Shown piece by piece: positions 14,411 to 57,959 of a stretch of 62,153 nucleotides of DNA. How positions within the stretch are numbered: the first letter of the stretch is position 1; the number at the start of each line of letters is the position of its first letter. Made by a program: the position numbers and the translations under genes. Origin of the DNA: an uncultured Candidatus Saccharibacteria bacterium (GTDB lineage: Bacteria > Patescibacteriota > Minisyncoccia > Phycocordibacterales > UBA12079); assembly GCA_964486155.1 (NCBI GenBank), contig CAZAKQ010000002.1:1-62153 (forward strand). The letters are read 5' to 3'. The notes below the pieces were generated by a model. It was not told where the DNA came from, searched no databases, and worked only from the letters and a program-made list of their open reading frames with translations.

Positions 14411-15537
14411 TATATTTTTTGATATATTCTTATTATTTTTTTAATTAAATTTTCTAAATTATGATCATCCATAATAATATCTCTTAATCTTTTACCAACT
14501 TTTATTTTTTCTTCTTCTGATAATTTAGAAAGATCATGTATCTTATCTATTAAATCTTTATTATCCTTTTTTTCAAAAAATAATTTATCAACATATTCTC
14601 TAAAAACTTCTTTAGAAGAATCATTACTTGATAATACTAACAATCCACAAGACATTGCTTCTAAAATAGCTTTATCTAAACTTCCTGTCTGGCTTGTATT
14701 AATAAACAAATCTGCTTTATGTAAGTAATTAATAATATTTTTATTAGGAACAGAGCCAACAAAGCTTATTTCTTTTTCTAAACCTTCTTTTTTAACTCTT
14801 TGTTTTAAATTTTCCAAATATTTTGTTTGATCAATTTTTCCTACTCCTCCAACAATGTCTAGTTTAACTTTTAATCCTTTTTCTTTTGAAATTTTTATCG
14901 AATCAATCAAAGTATCATAATCTTTAATTGGAGAAATTCTACCAACAGTTATAATTTTAAATACATTTTCTTTAAAATTATTATCTTTTCTATAAAATTG
15001 ATCTATATTGATTCCATGCCCTGTAATATTTAATTTTTTAGTTTTTATACGAAATGATTCTGGAGTAGCTGAAAAAATAGTGTGAGTTAATTTTTCAGCT
15101 ATTCGTAACTTTAAATCAACAGATTTATGCATATACCACAAACCAATTTTCTTTTGCCATAATCGCCACAAAATGCCCCCTAAAACAATATATTCTGGGT
15201 TCATATGTACAAAAACATTATCGTAATTATGTCTTTCAGTCCAAATATATTTGTAAAAATTTTTTATATATAAAAATTTCTTGAAAATTGAATCATTGAA
15301 AATTGATTGAGAATTGAAAATTGAAAACCTGCCTGCCGGCGAGGTAGGTTGAAAATTATCCTGTTCTTTTCCTAAGGAAAGAACTTTAACATTATTAGGC
15401 AAAGCATATTCTCCCACCTCTAAAGCTATTACTGTAATTTTTTCACAATGCTTGGCAAATTCAGCTACCCAACCATGAAAAAAACCAAGGATATCATCAT
15501 TTTTATTTATTTTTTGTGTTAATATCAATAATTTCAT
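14410..15537 (-). CDS. glycosyltransferase family 1/4 (carries an in-frame repeat insertion)
   Basis: GT-B C-terminal motifs (INTSQTGSLDKAILEAMSCGL). N terminus MKLLILTQK. Confidence 0.8.
   Translation of the reverse strand: MKLLILTQKINKNDDILGFFHGWVAEFAKHCEKITVIALEVGEYALPNNVKVLSLGKEQDNFQPTSPAGRFSIFNSQSIFNDSIFKKFLYIKNFYKYIWTERHNYDNVFVHMNPEYIVLGGILWRLWQKKIGLWYMHKSVDLKLRIAEKLTHTIFSATPESFRIKTKKLNITGHGINIDQFYRKDNNFKENVFKIITVGRISPIKDYDTLIDSIKISKEKGLKVKLDIVGGVGKIDQTKYLENLKQRVKKEGLEKEISFVGSVPNKNIINYLHKADLFINTSQTGSLDKAILEAMSCGLLVLSSNDSSKEVFREYVDKLFFEKKDNKDLIDKIHDLSKLSEEEKIKVGKRLRDIIMDDHNLENLIKKIIRIYQKI
15281..15355. repeat. palindrome-bearing repeat inserted in frame in the glycosyltransferase ORF
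   Basis: gaaaattga/gagaattga word run plus a GC hairpin acctgcctgccggcgaggtaggt (15327-15349). Same building blocks as intergenic repeats elsewhere in the window. Confidence 0.6.
15497..15537. repeat. 41-bp perfect direct repeat, copy 1 (5' end of the GT gene)
   Basis: tcatttttatttattttttgtgttaatatcaataatttcat is identical to 16128-16168. Confidence 0.95.
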
Positions 15538-15600: not shown

Positions 15601-16131
15601 TTAGTCCAAAGGTTGGCGCTTTTTGTTTTCATCTTTTTCTTTTTCTATAAAATGCTTAATATCAATCAGATATTTTATAGTTTTCTTCCAACCACAAGCT
15701 TTTCTTAACAAAAAAGAAGTTTTCTTTCTATTTGGACTTAAAACAACCTTAAATTTAACCTTATCTTCTAAATAGTTAACTAAACTAGCAAAATCTCCAT
15801 CACTTGTAATCAAAATAGCTTTGTCGTATTCTAATAAAAGATCAACAGTTGTTAGAGTTAAATCAACATCAACATTACCTTTTGGTTTCTCATTTTTATC
15901 TTGAGAAATTTCTTTAAAAATAATTTCAAAACCAGCATTTTCCAACAAAGAATAAAATTTTTCATTTTCTTCTATATATCCAATAAACCAAAAAGCTTTA
16001 TTAACTTTATATTTATCTTTTAAATAAATTCTCAGTTTAAAAACATCAACAGCCCAACCATCATCTTTTGTTCCAAGGTATAAATTTTGAGCATCTATAA
16101 ATGCATAATTATTCTCTCTATTTTTCCTCAT
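15601..16131 (-). CDS. NYN-domain (LabA/PIN-like) putative ribonuclease
   Basis: N-terminal YAFIDAQNLY and ILITSDGDF motifs typical of NYN/LabA domains. Confidence 0.75.
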   Translation of the reverse strand: MRKNRENNYAFIDAQNLYLGTKDDGWAVDVFKLRIYLKDKYKVNKAFWFIGYIEENEKFYSLLENAGFEIIFKEISQDKNEKPKGNVDVDLTLTTVDLLLEYDKAILITSDGDFASLVNYLEDKVKFKVVLSPNRKKTSFLLRKACGWKKTIKYLIDIKHFIEKEKDENKKRQPLD

Positions 16132-16168
16132 TTTTATTTATTTTTTGTGTTAATATCAATAATTTCAT
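16128..16168. repeat. 41-bp perfect direct repeat, copy 2
   Basis: Identical to 15497-15537. Contains the NYN start codon. Confidence 0.95.
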
Positions 16169-17343: not shown

Positions 17344-17463
17344 CCCGTTAGAGATAGTTTGTCAGAGACAAACTATCTCGAATTAAATTAATAACTTTTT
17401 GTTTCCGTTTTATCTATACTAATAATAAATATTTATTCTCACCAAATCTCTAACGGAATTCAT
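17342..17463 (-). promoter_or_regulatory. leader cassette copy a: mini-ORF plus arm abutting the GT start codon
   Basis: Distal ATGAATTCCGTTAGAGAT opens MNSVRDLVRINIYY* (17463..17419). Proximal ATCTCTAACGGGATG ends at the start codon at 17343. Confidence 0.6.
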
Positions 17464-18703: not shown

Positions 18704-18806
18704 ATGAATCCCGTTAGATATTGTAACTTTTTTCACAAATAACGGAATTTTAAATTTAGGTAAACTACAATATGCAAAAAGAAAGAAAAAAAATCTCTAA
18801 CGGGAT
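18704..18806 (+). promoter_or_regulatory. leader cassette copy b
   Basis: Distal ATGAATCCCGTTAGATAT opens MNPVRYCNFFHK* (18704..18742). Proximal ATCTCTAACGGGATG ends at ATG 18805. Confidence 0.6.
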
Positions 18807-28321: not shown

Positions 28322-28363
28322 TAAAACCCTACTAGTCCAGTTAACTGGACTAGTAGGGTTTTA
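28322..28363. repeat. 42-bp perfect palindrome, core tagtCCAGTTAACTGGacta
   Basis: Symmetry checked. Lies 26 nt 3' of the HTH gene stop, so it may double as a terminator. Confidence 0.9.
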
Positions 28364-28388
28364 TTTTTTAATTTTTGTTTATATTTAT

Positions 28389-28846: not shown

Positions 28847-28868
28847 TTAGTCCAGTTAACTGGACTAA
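28847..28868. repeat. 22-bp perfect palindrome, core tagtCCAGTTAACTGGacta (candidate operator)
   Basis: The palindrome starts 27 nt upstream of the HTH gene start codon. Its centre is 63 bp from the centre of the next copy. Confidence 0.85.
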
Positions 28869-28907
28869 TTTATGGTAATTTGTTTTTTATAAATTTTAAT
28901 TTTACTT

Positions 28908-28933
28908 GATTAGTCCAGTTAACTGGACTAATC
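28908..28933. repeat. 26-bp perfect palindrome, core tagtCCAGTTAACTGGacta
   Basis: Symmetry checked. Confidence 0.9.
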
Positions 28934-29037
28934 TTTCTTAATTCTTAAATCCTAAACTTGCCCGCCAGCAAGCAAGTCTTAAATCTTTAAATTAATAAAA
29001 AAATAGAGAAGTTAAACCTCTTCATTTAAAAAAATTT

Positions 29038-32507: not shown

Positions 32508-32578
32508 TTGCGGGAGCCTGACTTGAACAGACACCTGGAGGTTATGAGCCTCCCGTGCAACCTTTACACCATCCCGCG
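32508..32578 (-). tRNA. tRNA-fMet (anticodon CAU), initiator-like
   Basis: C1-A72 mismatch (cgcggga / tcccgca), anticodon stem ggagg/cctcc, loop ctCATaa, T loop ttcaagt. Confidence 0.7.
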
Positions 32579-32790
32579 ATATACTATTTAGTTTTAAAAC
32601 AAATTTATTCTTGTAACTCATAACCAAAGGTTATGAGTCTATGGATCCTATCGCGTGCAACCTTTACACCATCCCGCGATATACTATTTAGTTTTAAAAC
32701 AAATTTATTCTTGTAACTCATAACCAAAGGTTATGAGTCTATGGATCCTATCGCGTGCAACCTTTACACCATCCCGCGATATATTTAGTT
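32554..32790. repeat. 100-bp tandem repeat, about 2.3 copies, each containing the 5' 25 nt of tRNA-fMet
   Basis: 32554-32653 is identical to 32654-32753. A third partial copy starts at 32754 and has a 3-nt deletion. Confidence 0.9.
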
Positions 32791-35149: not shown

Positions 35150-35250
35150 ATTTATTAATTTAGAGGTCCGACCTCTTTAGATTATTTATTTAAATCTTTA
35201 AGCAAAACCATGTTAAAGCAAATTTAGAGGTCGGACCTCTAAATTATTTC

Positions 35251-35529
35251 TTACAGAATCTTCTTAACCTTAACATACCCTTTTTGAGTTTCTGGAGCTT
35301 CAATTAAGATATCATTACTAAACTCTCCTCCTATATAAGGATTATTATCTTCTCTCATAATATTTTGTAAATCACCTGCTTCATATTCTAAATCCCCTGT
35401 TTTAACTTTCTGAATTTGATCTATAAAATCTAAAATAGAATCCATTTCATTCAATAATTCTTTTTTTTCATTTTCTGTTAACTCTATTCTGCAAAGTTTT
35501 GCTAAATTTTCTATATCTTTAATTTCCAT
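35251..35529 (-). CDS. gatC: Glu/Asp-tRNA amidotransferase subunit C
   Basis: 92 aa, LAKLCRIELTENEKKEL..MREDN pattern, directly upstream of gatA. Confidence 0.85.
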   Translation of the reverse strand: MEIKDIENLAKLCRIELTENEKKELLNEMDSILDFIDQIQKVKTGDLEYEAGDLQNIMREDNNPYIGGEFSNDILIEAPETQKGYVKVKKIL

Positions 35530-50721: not shown

Positions 50722-50806
50722 ATGAATCCCGTTAGAGATTACGGGGATAATTGTTATCAATTTAATTTAAGATAGTTTACCAAAAATAACCTATCTCTAA
50801 CGGGAT
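50722..50806 (+). promoter_or_regulatory. leader cassette copy c (upstream of comF)
   Basis: Distal ATGAATCCCGTTAGAGAT opens MNPVRDYGDNCYQFNLR* (50722..50775). Proximal ATCTCTAACGGGATG ends at ATG 50805. The arms are 14/14 complementary. Confidence 0.65.
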
Positions 50807-53124: not shown

Positions 53125-54132
53125 TTATCGTGTATATCTAAGTGTATTCCATCTATCTAAGTAAATCATTTCTAAATTATGTTCATCTAATTTTACTATT
53201 TCATATACAAAAGGATCTAATCCTGGGGTAACTGCAAATAAATATTTACCATTTTCATCTTCAGGAGTTTCTCTTGTTATTGGATATTCATTATAAAGAA
53301 GAAAAGGTCCTTCTATCATAGAGACTCCATCGTAAAAATCTACTTTATATTTATCACTGAAATCTAAAATAGATTTTTCATCGTCAACTGAAATCCACCG
53401 TCCTTTTATTTTTTCATAATTATTAGAAATTTCAAGATTTTGATCATTCAACTCAATAGTATCTACTACTTCATCAAAAGAATTAAACCAACTCTGAGCT
53501 TCTTCCGAACCTTTCCCTTCCTTTAAACTATTATAGAAAGCATCTATTTTATCAAAATTCCAAATTAATTGATCTCCACAATTTTCTTCATTCTTTTCAA
53601 AATATTCTGACATAGTTGGAATAATTAAATCTTTATTTCCTTTTAAGGTTATAATAATTCTTCTATCATTTTTAAAAAATAAAGCTTTCCTTTCTAAAGT
53701 TACATCACAAATCTCAAAACGACTTAAAACCATATATTCTTGAGCATTAATTCCTTTTAAATCTCTGACTTTTTTTGAAATTTCCAATTCCCAATCATGT
53801 TCAGTTCCATATTCTCCCTTTTTCAAAGACTCTACTGTACTTAAAACATCTTCTTTGTCAAAACTTGGATAATCTAAATCATCTATTTTCGTATTTTCAA
53901 CCAAAAGCTGAGTTTCTCTTCCTGCGAAAGAGACACTATGTGGATATTTTAAAAATAAATCAGTTCCTTCTATTTCATAGAAATTCCATAAATCTGTTTC
54001 ATTTTCTATAGCCTTAGCTTGTCCACTTTGGTTAAACTCCTGTTCCTCTTTATTTTCTATAGAGCCTACTAAAAAACTTAGTCCAAATACTATTAATAGT
54101 ATTACTCCTAATAATATTAAAATGTTTTTCAT
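53125..54132 (-). CDS. hypothetical secreted protein
   Basis: Signal-peptide-like N terminus MKNILILLGVILLIVFGLSF. No motif recognised. Confidence 0.5.
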   Translation of the reverse strand: MKNILILLGVILLIVFGLSFLVGSIENKEEQEFNQSGQAKAIENETDLWNFYEIEGTDLFLKYPHSVSFAGRETQLLVENTKIDDLDYPSFDKEDVLSTVESLKKGEYGTEHDWELEISKKVRDLKGINAQEYMVLSRFEICDVTLERKALFFKNDRRIIITLKGNKDLIIPTMSEYFEKNEENCGDQLIWNFDKIDAFYNSLKEGKGSEEAQSWFNSFDEVVDTIELNDQNLEISNNYEKIKGRWISVDDEKSILDFSDKYKVDFYDGVSMIEGPFLLYNEYPITRETPEDENGKYLFAVTPGLDPFVYEIVKLDEHNLEMIYLDRWNTLRYTR

Positions 54133-54236
54133 CCCGTTAGAAATAATTCACTATTAGCAAACAATCTCAGTTAATTTATAATTTTAATTCCCGTTTTTTA
54201 TCCAAATTACAAAATCAAATCTCTAACGGGATCCAT
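54131..54236 (-). promoter_or_regulatory. leader cassette copy d
   Basis: Distal ATGGATCCCGTTAGAGAT opens MDPVRDLIL* (54236..54207). Proximal ATTTCTAACGGGATG ends at the start codon at 54132. Confidence 0.6.
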
Positions 54237-54278
54237 AATATTTTCGTTAATTACTAAACTTAATTTGATTGTAACACA

Positions 54279-54327
54279 AAACCCCCGTTCTTTGAATTTT
54301 GATTTAAAATTCAAAGAACGGGGGTTT
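54279..54327. terminator. long bidirectional hairpin 3' of rubrerythrin
   Basis: aaacccccgttctttgaatttt / aaaattcaaagaacgggggttt, a ~21-bp stem. Confidence 0.6.
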
Positions 54328-57714: not shown

Positions 57715-57959
57715 ATTAGCATTTATAAAATATTATATCAAAAACTCTTTAAAATCAATTTAATTTTCCTAGACTACTGCATCAAAATTATTTGGAAATA
57801 CGACTTCTTTTAATTATTTATTAAAATCTTTAGGCAAATTCATATCAATGCAAATTCAGAAGTCGGACTTCCAAATAATTTCTTCTCGAAGATGAATTTT
57901 GCTTTAGCAAAATTCGTCACTTTCAACTTTATGAACTTTTTAGACTTTCGACTTCTCTC

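Follow-up and report, generated by a model that had tools for sequence, protein, structure and literature searches.

The Correia elements (CREE/NEMIS) of Neisseria are transposable elements of the miniature inverted-repeat kind (MITEs) with 26-bp terminal repeats, a TA target duplication and a DDE transposase as partner, and elements of the IS200/IS605 type, which depend on a Y1/HUH transposase, leave their target unduplicated. GIY-YIG homing endonuclease genes, exemplified by those of I-TevI and the T4 Seg proteins, are either free-standing or intron-borne (PMC2988022). The nearest described system to the element reported here is that of the Ssn proteins, small GIY-YIG single-strand nucleases flanked by NTS/SRM hairpin repeats, a layout called IS-like by its describers themselves (Chenal et al., Nat Commun 2025; PMC11893778). 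Our subject is copy d, a 98-nt element on the minus strand of a 62,153-nt stretch of DNA (hereafter the window: contig CAZAKQ010000002.1, positions 1 to 62,153) from an uncultured Candidatus Saccharibacteria bacterium (assembly GCA_964486155.1). Taken with the start words on either side of it (window 54128-54236), copy d is very probably a non-autonomous, MITE-like member of a family of small mobile elements, the autonomous form of which carries a gene for a GIY-YIG nuclease. That the element moves, what moves it and any effect that it has on translation we infer. Searching the literature by topic and by the arm sequences found no published description of this family.

Like MITEs in general, copy d is short, non-coding, multicopy and bounded by terminal inverted repeats (12-14 nt). 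It occupies 54133-54230 on the minus strand, with a 74-nt interior between its arms, and lies between two start words, a distal ATGGA (54232-54236) and a proximal ATGAA (54128-54132), which are identical at 4/5 positions. The family ends are (T)CCCGTTAGAGAT ... ATCTCTAACGGG, inverted relative to each other; the 5' arm of copy d, T-CCCGTTAGAGAT (54219-54231, with the 12-mer CCCGTTAGAGAT at 54230-54219), matches exactly, and the 12-nt 3' arm, ATTTCTAACGGG (54133-54144), departs by one transition. This single arm difference, ATTTCT versus ATCTCT, was recorded in the initial annotation of the locus, and it does place a U opposite a G: in RNA the two pair as G-U, and in DNA the position is a G-T mismatch. 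The distal ATG opens the nine-codon mini-open reading frame (mini-ORF) that had been annotated at 54236-54207 on the minus strand (ATG GAT CCC GTT AGA GAT TTG ATT TTG TAA, or MDPVRDLIL*), and when the interior was read for open reading frames (ORFs) no nuclease gene was found between the arms, the frame stopping after 9 codons. The proximal ATG is the working start codon of a 335-aa host gene (53125-54132, minus strand), which, again as annotated, begins directly after the 3' arm; the orthologues of this gene, in the relatives G002 and G003, begin at the same codon. A Pfam search of the 335-aa protein gave no family match, and the protein would be secreted only insofar as its hydrophobic N-terminus, the sole basis of that label, is so read.

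Two further features lie between the arms. A motif conserved across the family, ACGGGAAT (54187-54194, minus strand), reads ACGGRA in the majority of the gene-less copies; copy a (see below) and the nuclease gene have ACGGAAAC, and the motif may be homologous with that gene, judging from 8 nt only. Directly 5' of the 3' arm is a subterminal hairpin region (P3; GAGATTGTTTGC-TAA-TAGTGAATT, 54145-54168, minus strand), the pairing of which is weakened in copy d, being rich in G-U/U-G wobbles. Upstream of the element, a consensus scan picked out a promoter-like site (54268-54296, minus strand) consisting of TTCAAA, a 17-nt spacer and a TG-extended TACAAT, which ends at 54268 just past the rubrerythrin terminator, so that the transcript would have the element as its 5' leader. 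This candidate promoter would place the transcript start about 25 nt upstream of the distal ATG, and at the orthologous locus of G002 the sequence TGTTATAAT stands at a distance comparable to that of the promoter-like site of copy d. An outward promoter within the element (TAAGAT) was also considered and dropped, the hexamer not being conserved as TA...T in copies a and d.

Copy d belongs to a family that is well represented in its host genome (G000; 657 kb, 28.6% G+C, 98% complete), of which the window is contig 2. With up to 2 mismatches allowed, the window contains 11 occurrences of the 12-mer arm where 2.1 would be expected, and 0/100 shuffles reached 11; ATCTCTAACGGGATG, with up to 1 mismatch, occurs 23 times genome-wide against 0 for the reversed control. 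Four mutually alignable element copies lie in the window and 19 in the genome, each 75-146 nt long. The three siblings in the window precede a GT4 glycosyltransferase gene (copy a, 17344-17457, minus strand), a 181-aa ORF (copy b, 18710-18804, plus strand) and a gene for a ComF-like phosphoribosyltransferase (copy c, 50728-50804, plus strand). The proposal that the interior of copy d is homologous to that of copy a was borne out, CAAACWATCTC and TTYCCGTTTT..ATC being common to the two. In 19/19 copies the 3' arm directly precedes the ATG or GTG of an ORF of 63-722 aa, and the genes so preceded are unrelated, including those for RpiB, GT4 and ComF-like proteins, DnaX, TruB, a PfkB kinase, Wzy_C/TPR and PAP2 proteins, triosephosphate isomerase (tpiA), RNase H, an FtsJ methyltransferase, an SDR protein and ribosomal protein L35 (rpmI), together with several without a family. 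Most copies have ATGAA both before the 5' arm and after the 3' arm, and about half have a TATAAT-type box 6-8 nt ahead of the upstream ATG, a distance often seen in this genome. The gene-less copies share a conserved interior of their own across loci and species, suggesting that they spread as such. Across 41 relatives the arm word is patchy, ranging from 0 to 58 per genome.

A full-length partner was sought by scanning the loci of relatives for long ORFs opening with the 5' arm. The same ends were found to bound a unit of approximately 275-285 bp, the sole gene of which encodes a 92-95-aa GIY-YIG (Slx1/UPF0213-like) nuclease reading MNPVRD...KSGMGKRY...RFLSLTG* (Pfam GIY-YIG PF01541, E 4e-14 to 3e-16). 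The ORF starts at the upstream ATG, its 5' arm encodes nuclease residues 2-6 (NPVRD), its last codons, TCT CTA ACG GGA, are the 3' arm and encode the C-terminal SLTG, and its TGA overlaps the host ATG (ATGA). Since the same arms thus end a nuclease gene, the mini-ORF of copy d is best read as a duplicated host start codon followed by a fossil of the nuclease N-terminus. Nuclease-bearing elements were found in G031, in G032 and in G005, which is of the same genus as the host, the intact 282-bp copy of G005 (G005:C12) lying behind a TGCTATAAT box 6 nt from the ATG. A nuclease profile scan, at one genome per species, returned 365 relatives; of the loci kept from it, the arm pair was present in 80/80, mostly spaced at 272-283 bp (range 234-399). 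The kept loci come from many Patescibacteria and, by record title, also from Omnitrophota, Elusimicrobiota, Nitrospirota, Desulfobacterota, Planctomycetota and others; nuclease copies from these phyla have the same ends and 64-74% protein identity. Approximately half of the kept loci combine ATGNN flanks on either side with a long host ORF, and the others, mainly outside the Candidate Phyla Radiation (CPR), have flanks of the TTTAC/GTAAA type. The predicted nuclease fold (predicted local distance difference test score, pLDDT, 87.6) was nearest to UPF0213 BH0048 and to the Slx1 structure-specific nucleases.

No cognate nuclease copy was found anywhere in the G000 genome, despite its 19 gene-less copies, and because of this absence these copies may be stranded or may have moved in trans. 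The two GIY-YIG genes that G000 does have are of a different kind and are lodged in tRNA genes, at C20:7285-7515 (L063, G000:C20:5785-9015) and C4:36617-36889 (L064, G000:C4:35117-38389). Each has a copy of the tRNA 5' part and a GC hairpin upstream and the complete tRNA directly downstream, the tRNAs being, by anticodon reading, Pro-TGG and Asn-GTT, and the gene on C4 contains one in-frame TAG. They look to be GIY-YIG cassettes of a second type, in which the 5' halves of tRNAs are duplicated.

Comparison of congeners revealed both empty and filled sites. Three genomes (G000, G001 and G002) lack the element at recG and three (G003, G004 and G005) have it, with the spacing from promoter to ATG preserved: in the empty sites the ATG stands 6-7 nt after a -10 box, and in G005 the same box and spacing precede ATAGA-TCCCG..., the gene itself starting at ...CGGG-ATGAAACTAAAC. 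Among six congeners tpiA and dnaX are filled solely in G000, the other five beginning directly with ATGAAA or ATGAAT, and at the 335-aa gene behind copy d the element occupies the same position in G000 and G002, the G003 site being empty. Examination of 143 copies showed that the distal word tracks the host's own second codon. The second codon does not begin with AA in 34/143 copies, and of these 34 the distal word matches in a fixed register in 14 (ATGTA, ATGGA, ATGAG) and in a 4- or 6-nt register in approximately 6 more, with 2 keeping the consensus ATGAA. The flank is therefore duplicated host sequence and not part of the element, and we read the distal ATGGA of copy d as the upstream half of such a target duplication. 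One further locus, G004:C7:38171-38289 (L067/L078), has an ATG on both outer sides, with an ATGCAT palindrome on the left and ATGAAA on the right, and the element there may sit between two divergent start codons.

This host-derived flank bears directly on whether the family could instead be moved by an enzyme of the IS200/IS605 (Y1/HUH) type, inserting 3' of ATGAA and bringing an ATGAA of its own at the right end with no true duplication. Strand-specific subterminal hairpins and a fixed short target word are both typical of IS200/IS605 elements (see also PMC11893778), which are also very small, and G000 has six Y1_Tnp matches, one of them strong (C4:43148-43510, E 7e-43) and lying approximately 0.9 kb from the truB copy. 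However, an end borne by the element would not change with the second codon of the host in the way that the observed flanks do (ATGTA/ATGTA, ATGGA/ATGGA, ATGAG/ATGAG), and the ends are linked to a GIY-YIG gene in every kept nuclease locus. Across the 41 genomes, moreover, Y1_Tnp matches do not track arm counts, there being 6 matches against 0 arms in G009, 4 against 0 in G007, and one weak match against 18 arms in G006. Such a mover, although present in the genome, was rejected, and we consider this explanation extremely improbable. As to the Y1 matches themselves, the strong one (L215, G000:C4:41648-45010) is of the IS200 type in a 158-aa frame, and the five weaker ones, including C4:33751-34098, lie in frames of approximately 230-285 aa and are of a type seen again in most relatives, genomes lacking the arm word among them.

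The comparison with Ssn is closer. In both systems a small single-domain GIY-YIG gene lies between its own inverted or hairpin repeats, and gene-less repeats have been amplified to many copies per genome. Recognition that is strand-specific and single-stranded would be a further likeness, and the pairing bias of the subterminal hairpin described below would be compatible with site-specific cleavage of single-stranded DNA beside the hairpin, as in Ssn. It could accordingly be supposed that the copies are not transposons at all but Ssn-type target repeats, that is, sites recognised by a GIY-YIG single-strand nuclease which the host keeps and which would modulate its recombination or transformation, in the manner of the NTS/SRM repeats of Neisseria, and that they were spread by recombination. 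A repeat on both sides of such a gene is indeed the ssnA architecture (PMC11893778), the hairpins are strand-specific, and G000 keeps its two other GIY-YIG genes. Against this, the copies behave as bounded units, with duplicated flanks and with empty sites that are clean, they lie on start codons only and not around particular gene classes, and G000 has 19 of them but no cognate nuclease. The published SRM pattern, HGTCWYN(0-2)YYVSBRHN(0-5)WNVSBRGN(0-2)RNCYNB, had 0 matches in 73 element copies and 0 in the genome. The arms here, unlike the repeats of Ssn, are 12-14 nt, stand 75-285 nt apart and are partly coding, and no role in transformation is implied. Ssn nucleases are those of CDD family cd10448; the nuclease here was placed by Pfam, which gives only PF01541, and by its nearest solved structures, UPF0213 BH0048 and Slx1. 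We regard target repeats of this kind as a very improbable account of the family.

The likeness to the other two systems is partial. With Correia elements the family shares a size of 75-150 bp, terminal inverted repeats, a target duplication, many gene-adjacent copies that are co-transcribed and can form a long hairpin in the mRNA, and a presence that differs among close relatives; it differs in that the target is a start-codon word, the partner is a GIY-YIG nuclease and the orientation relative to the gene is single. Identity with Correia/CREE was ruled out, the flanks being ATGNN, the arms 12-14 nt and the sequence unrelated. With GIY-YIG homing genes it has in common a selfish unit whose sole gene is a GIY-YIG nuclease, situated between or within essential genes and doing little harm. 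Homing nucleases, by contrast, add a DNA-binding domain and home to one cognate allele, their genes lack terminal inverted repeats, target duplications and gene-less miniatures at unrelated loci, and the modelled fold of the nuclease described here appears nearer to Slx1/UPF0213 than to I-TevI.

Folded as RNA, a 121-nt stretch holding copy d reached -24.9 kcal/mol (z = -3.26; 0/200 shuffles as good), and folded as DNA the region gave z = -2.3. Within the predicted 14-bp terminal stem the A and U of the host start codon are paired. Across 66 copies the family arms form 882/924 Watson-Crick pairs and are nearly invariant, with few compensatory changes; because they are mostly invariant they give little covariation, and copies from relatives had been selected by their 3' arm, which limits the arm variation visible. 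The non-canonical pairs of the terminal arms (G-U 23 versus A-C 13) are not decisive, and the invariance itself looks like sequence-specific recognition or recent spread, rather than mere pairing. In the subterminal hairpin (family alignment A4) 89% of cells are paired, compared with 34-51% in slid controls, 6/10 pairs show changes on both sides, and 0/500 shuffles reached the observed score, the variants including GTTTGTC/GACAAAC, GTCTGT/ACAGAC, ATTTAC/GTAAAT, GTTTATC/GATAAAC and ATCTGT/GCAGAT. Its non-canonical cells comprise 28 G-U and 2 A-C (a nominal p of 9e-7, which is overstated since the copies are related), and the subterminal hairpin therefore acts single-stranded on the sense strand. 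It could be kept there either as mRNA or as the top DNA strand, which are inseparable because the element always shares the orientation of the gene.

This pairing raises the question of whether copy d is a dedicated translational leader, possibly an exapted host module, in which the start codon would be masked by the stem, and the stem melted whenever the short upstream ORF is translated. The initial annotation had described a leader cassette, and in its anatomy, its membership of a family and its predicted place as a 5' leader in the transcript that description holds. The inclusion of the A and U of the AUG in the stem, arms far better conserved than the interior, and a subterminal hairpin that accepts G-U but not A-C on the sense strand, as RNA would, are all consistent with a regulatory function, and the upstream ATG is kept in approximately 14/19 copies. 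Accessibility of the start codon may also matter in this bacterium, where the Shine-Dalgarno sequence is rarely used: GGAG or GAGG occurs within 20 nt upstream in 43/508 genes, and a TATAAT-like box 4-16 nt before the ATG in 98/508, suggesting many leaderless mRNAs, the gene calls behind these counts, and those behind the counts of ATGAA words below, being crude. Other G000 genes have leaders built of repeated CCTAA or ACTTTTAACTTT units.

It is the dedicated regulatory role that is not supported. The host genes have no common function, the presence of the element varies among congeners even at dnaX, tpiA and recG, and in relatives a nuclease gene lies between these same ends. Beyond the MNPVRD encoded by the arm, the mini-ORFs are conserved in neither sequence nor length, and they stop 8-21 codons in, far from the main AUG. 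The upstream ATG has been lost in the dnaX copy, in C14:16873 and in the recG copies of G005 and G004, and in the dnaX copy the 5' arm has decayed as well, and a mini-ORF is therefore not generally required. Rfam gave nothing at the element at the gathering threshold in a search of the whole window, and nothing at permissive E-values on copy d or seven other copies. A dedicated leader is thus, in our view, unlikely. A riboswitch or regulon and a leader-peptide attenuator were likewise ruled out, by the 19 unrelated downstream genes, the variable mini-ORFs and the absence of an Rfam match, as was a conserved leader peptide, for which only MNPVRD is common at lengths of 8-21 codons.

Returning to the mobile-element reading, the events at this locus may be pictured as follows. 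Insertion would have duplicated 4-6 nt including the ATG, leaving the coding sequence intact, and transcripts from the upstream promoter would now carry the element as a leader of approximately 100 nt. The ends would pair into the 14-bp stem, in which the real AUG has its A and U engaged, and the nine-codon ORF, composed of the upstream ATG and the arm as a presumed remnant of the nuclease N-terminus, would, when translated, cover the 5' arm and so might transiently open the stem and free the AUG. At dnaX, initiation at the following in-frame Met would cost the protein its P-loop, and the rebuilt ATG must therefore be the one in use there. The nuclease of full-length copies would borrow the upstream start codon of the host and its TGA would overlap the rebuilt ATG, an ATGA overlap that would fit coupling by termination and reinitiation. 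Mobility would probably come about through recognition by the nuclease of strand-specific hairpin ends in single-stranded DNA, in the manner of Ssn nucleases. Copy d itself is most likely a passive, tolerated insertion, and possibly an exapted translational gate.

The choice of start codons as targets appears to go beyond the target word. G000 has approximately 217 ATGAA words at called starts, 511 that are intergenic and not at starts, and 2187 inside genes, and insertion guided by the word only, with purging of genic insertions, predicts approximately 70% of copies away from starts, compared with the 19/19 observed at them. Either recognition exceeds the word, then, or insertions elsewhere are lost in some other way. 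The full-length copies have no start signal of their own, and one such reason could be that only insertions at a working start codon would express the nuclease.

Several points weigh against reading the family as mobile elements with a nuclease partner. The product of the partner that has these ends is a GIY-YIG nuclease, which does not belong to any established class of transposase, and its candidacy as the mover comes solely from the shared ends; GIY-YIG nucleases are hydrolytic, and to our knowledge none is known to act as a transposase. No derivation of the gene-less interiors from the nuclease gene is obvious, the 8-nt ACGGAAAC and the ends being all that the two have in common, and selection on an RNA leader would be another fit for the very high arm conservation, the retention of the upstream ATG and the bias towards G-U. 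At the 335-aa gene, the interior of the G002 copy is as similar to copy d (0.72) as that of a non-orthologous copy (0.73), and shared ancestry of the two orthologous copies cannot be told from re-insertion. The length of the duplication is non-uniform, at 4, 5 or 6 nt, and a 5-nt duplication and a 4-nt duplication with a terminal A belonging to the element each fit only some copies: the tpiA copy, with GTGAA on both sides where congeners have ATG, is most simply a 5-nt duplication, and some G021 copies, with GTG distal and ATG proximal, better fit a terminal A. Finally, several G021 copies of approximately 115 nt lie in TGATATAAT promoter-like boxes and not in start codons, and start codons are therefore not the sole possible seat. 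In that genome (L111-L123; another family, same order) there are non-coding forms of approximately 115 nt and approximately 190 nt, and in several of the 190-nt forms there persists an internal inverted repeat that co-varies (ACGGAAACGCC...GGCGTTTCC, for instance) and that is present in the nuclease gene too.

Rather tentatively, and with somewhat less than even confidence, we suggest that the family could represent a new class of DNA mobile element, powered by a minimal Slx1-like GIY-YIG nuclease that inserts at start codons and leaves copies acting as mobile leader hairpins that gate or couple initiation. As part of this same tentative suggestion, recognition of the hairpin ends would be strand-specific, targeting of start codons would go beyond the 5-nt word, and the start codon of the host would be borrowed and then rebuilt, in essential genes included and in bacteria without Shine-Dalgarno-led initiation. 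If this is true, a tiny and very widespread selfish element would be powered by a nuclease of a type not known as a driver of transposons in bacteria, and it would tolerate, and perhaps exploit, insertion into the start triplet of essential genes, the most sensitive that they have, in genomes of approximately 0.6 Mb. The copies would then alter the 5' leaders of many core CPR genes, create spurious mini-ORFs, and affect gene calling, the annotation of start codons and models of translation initiation in CPR bacteria. The nuclease together with its hairpin could also provide a compact, sequence-specific tool for single-stranded DNA, as has been proposed for Ssn enzymes.

The window contains other repeats in addition to the element family. 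A 44-nt direct repeat, 98% identical, occurs at 15494-15537 and 16125-16168, 631 nt apart (D11, D18), and a recurring TAGTCCAGTTAACTGGACTA palindrome is found at 28333-28372, 28848-28887 and 28911-28950. At 32551-32783 there are 2.3 tandem copies of a 100-nt unit with 99% identity, beginning in or beside the tRNA at 32508-32578, and a 95-nt module with GAGGTCGGACCTC-type palindromes lies near tRNA genes at 35158-35252 and 57790-57884.

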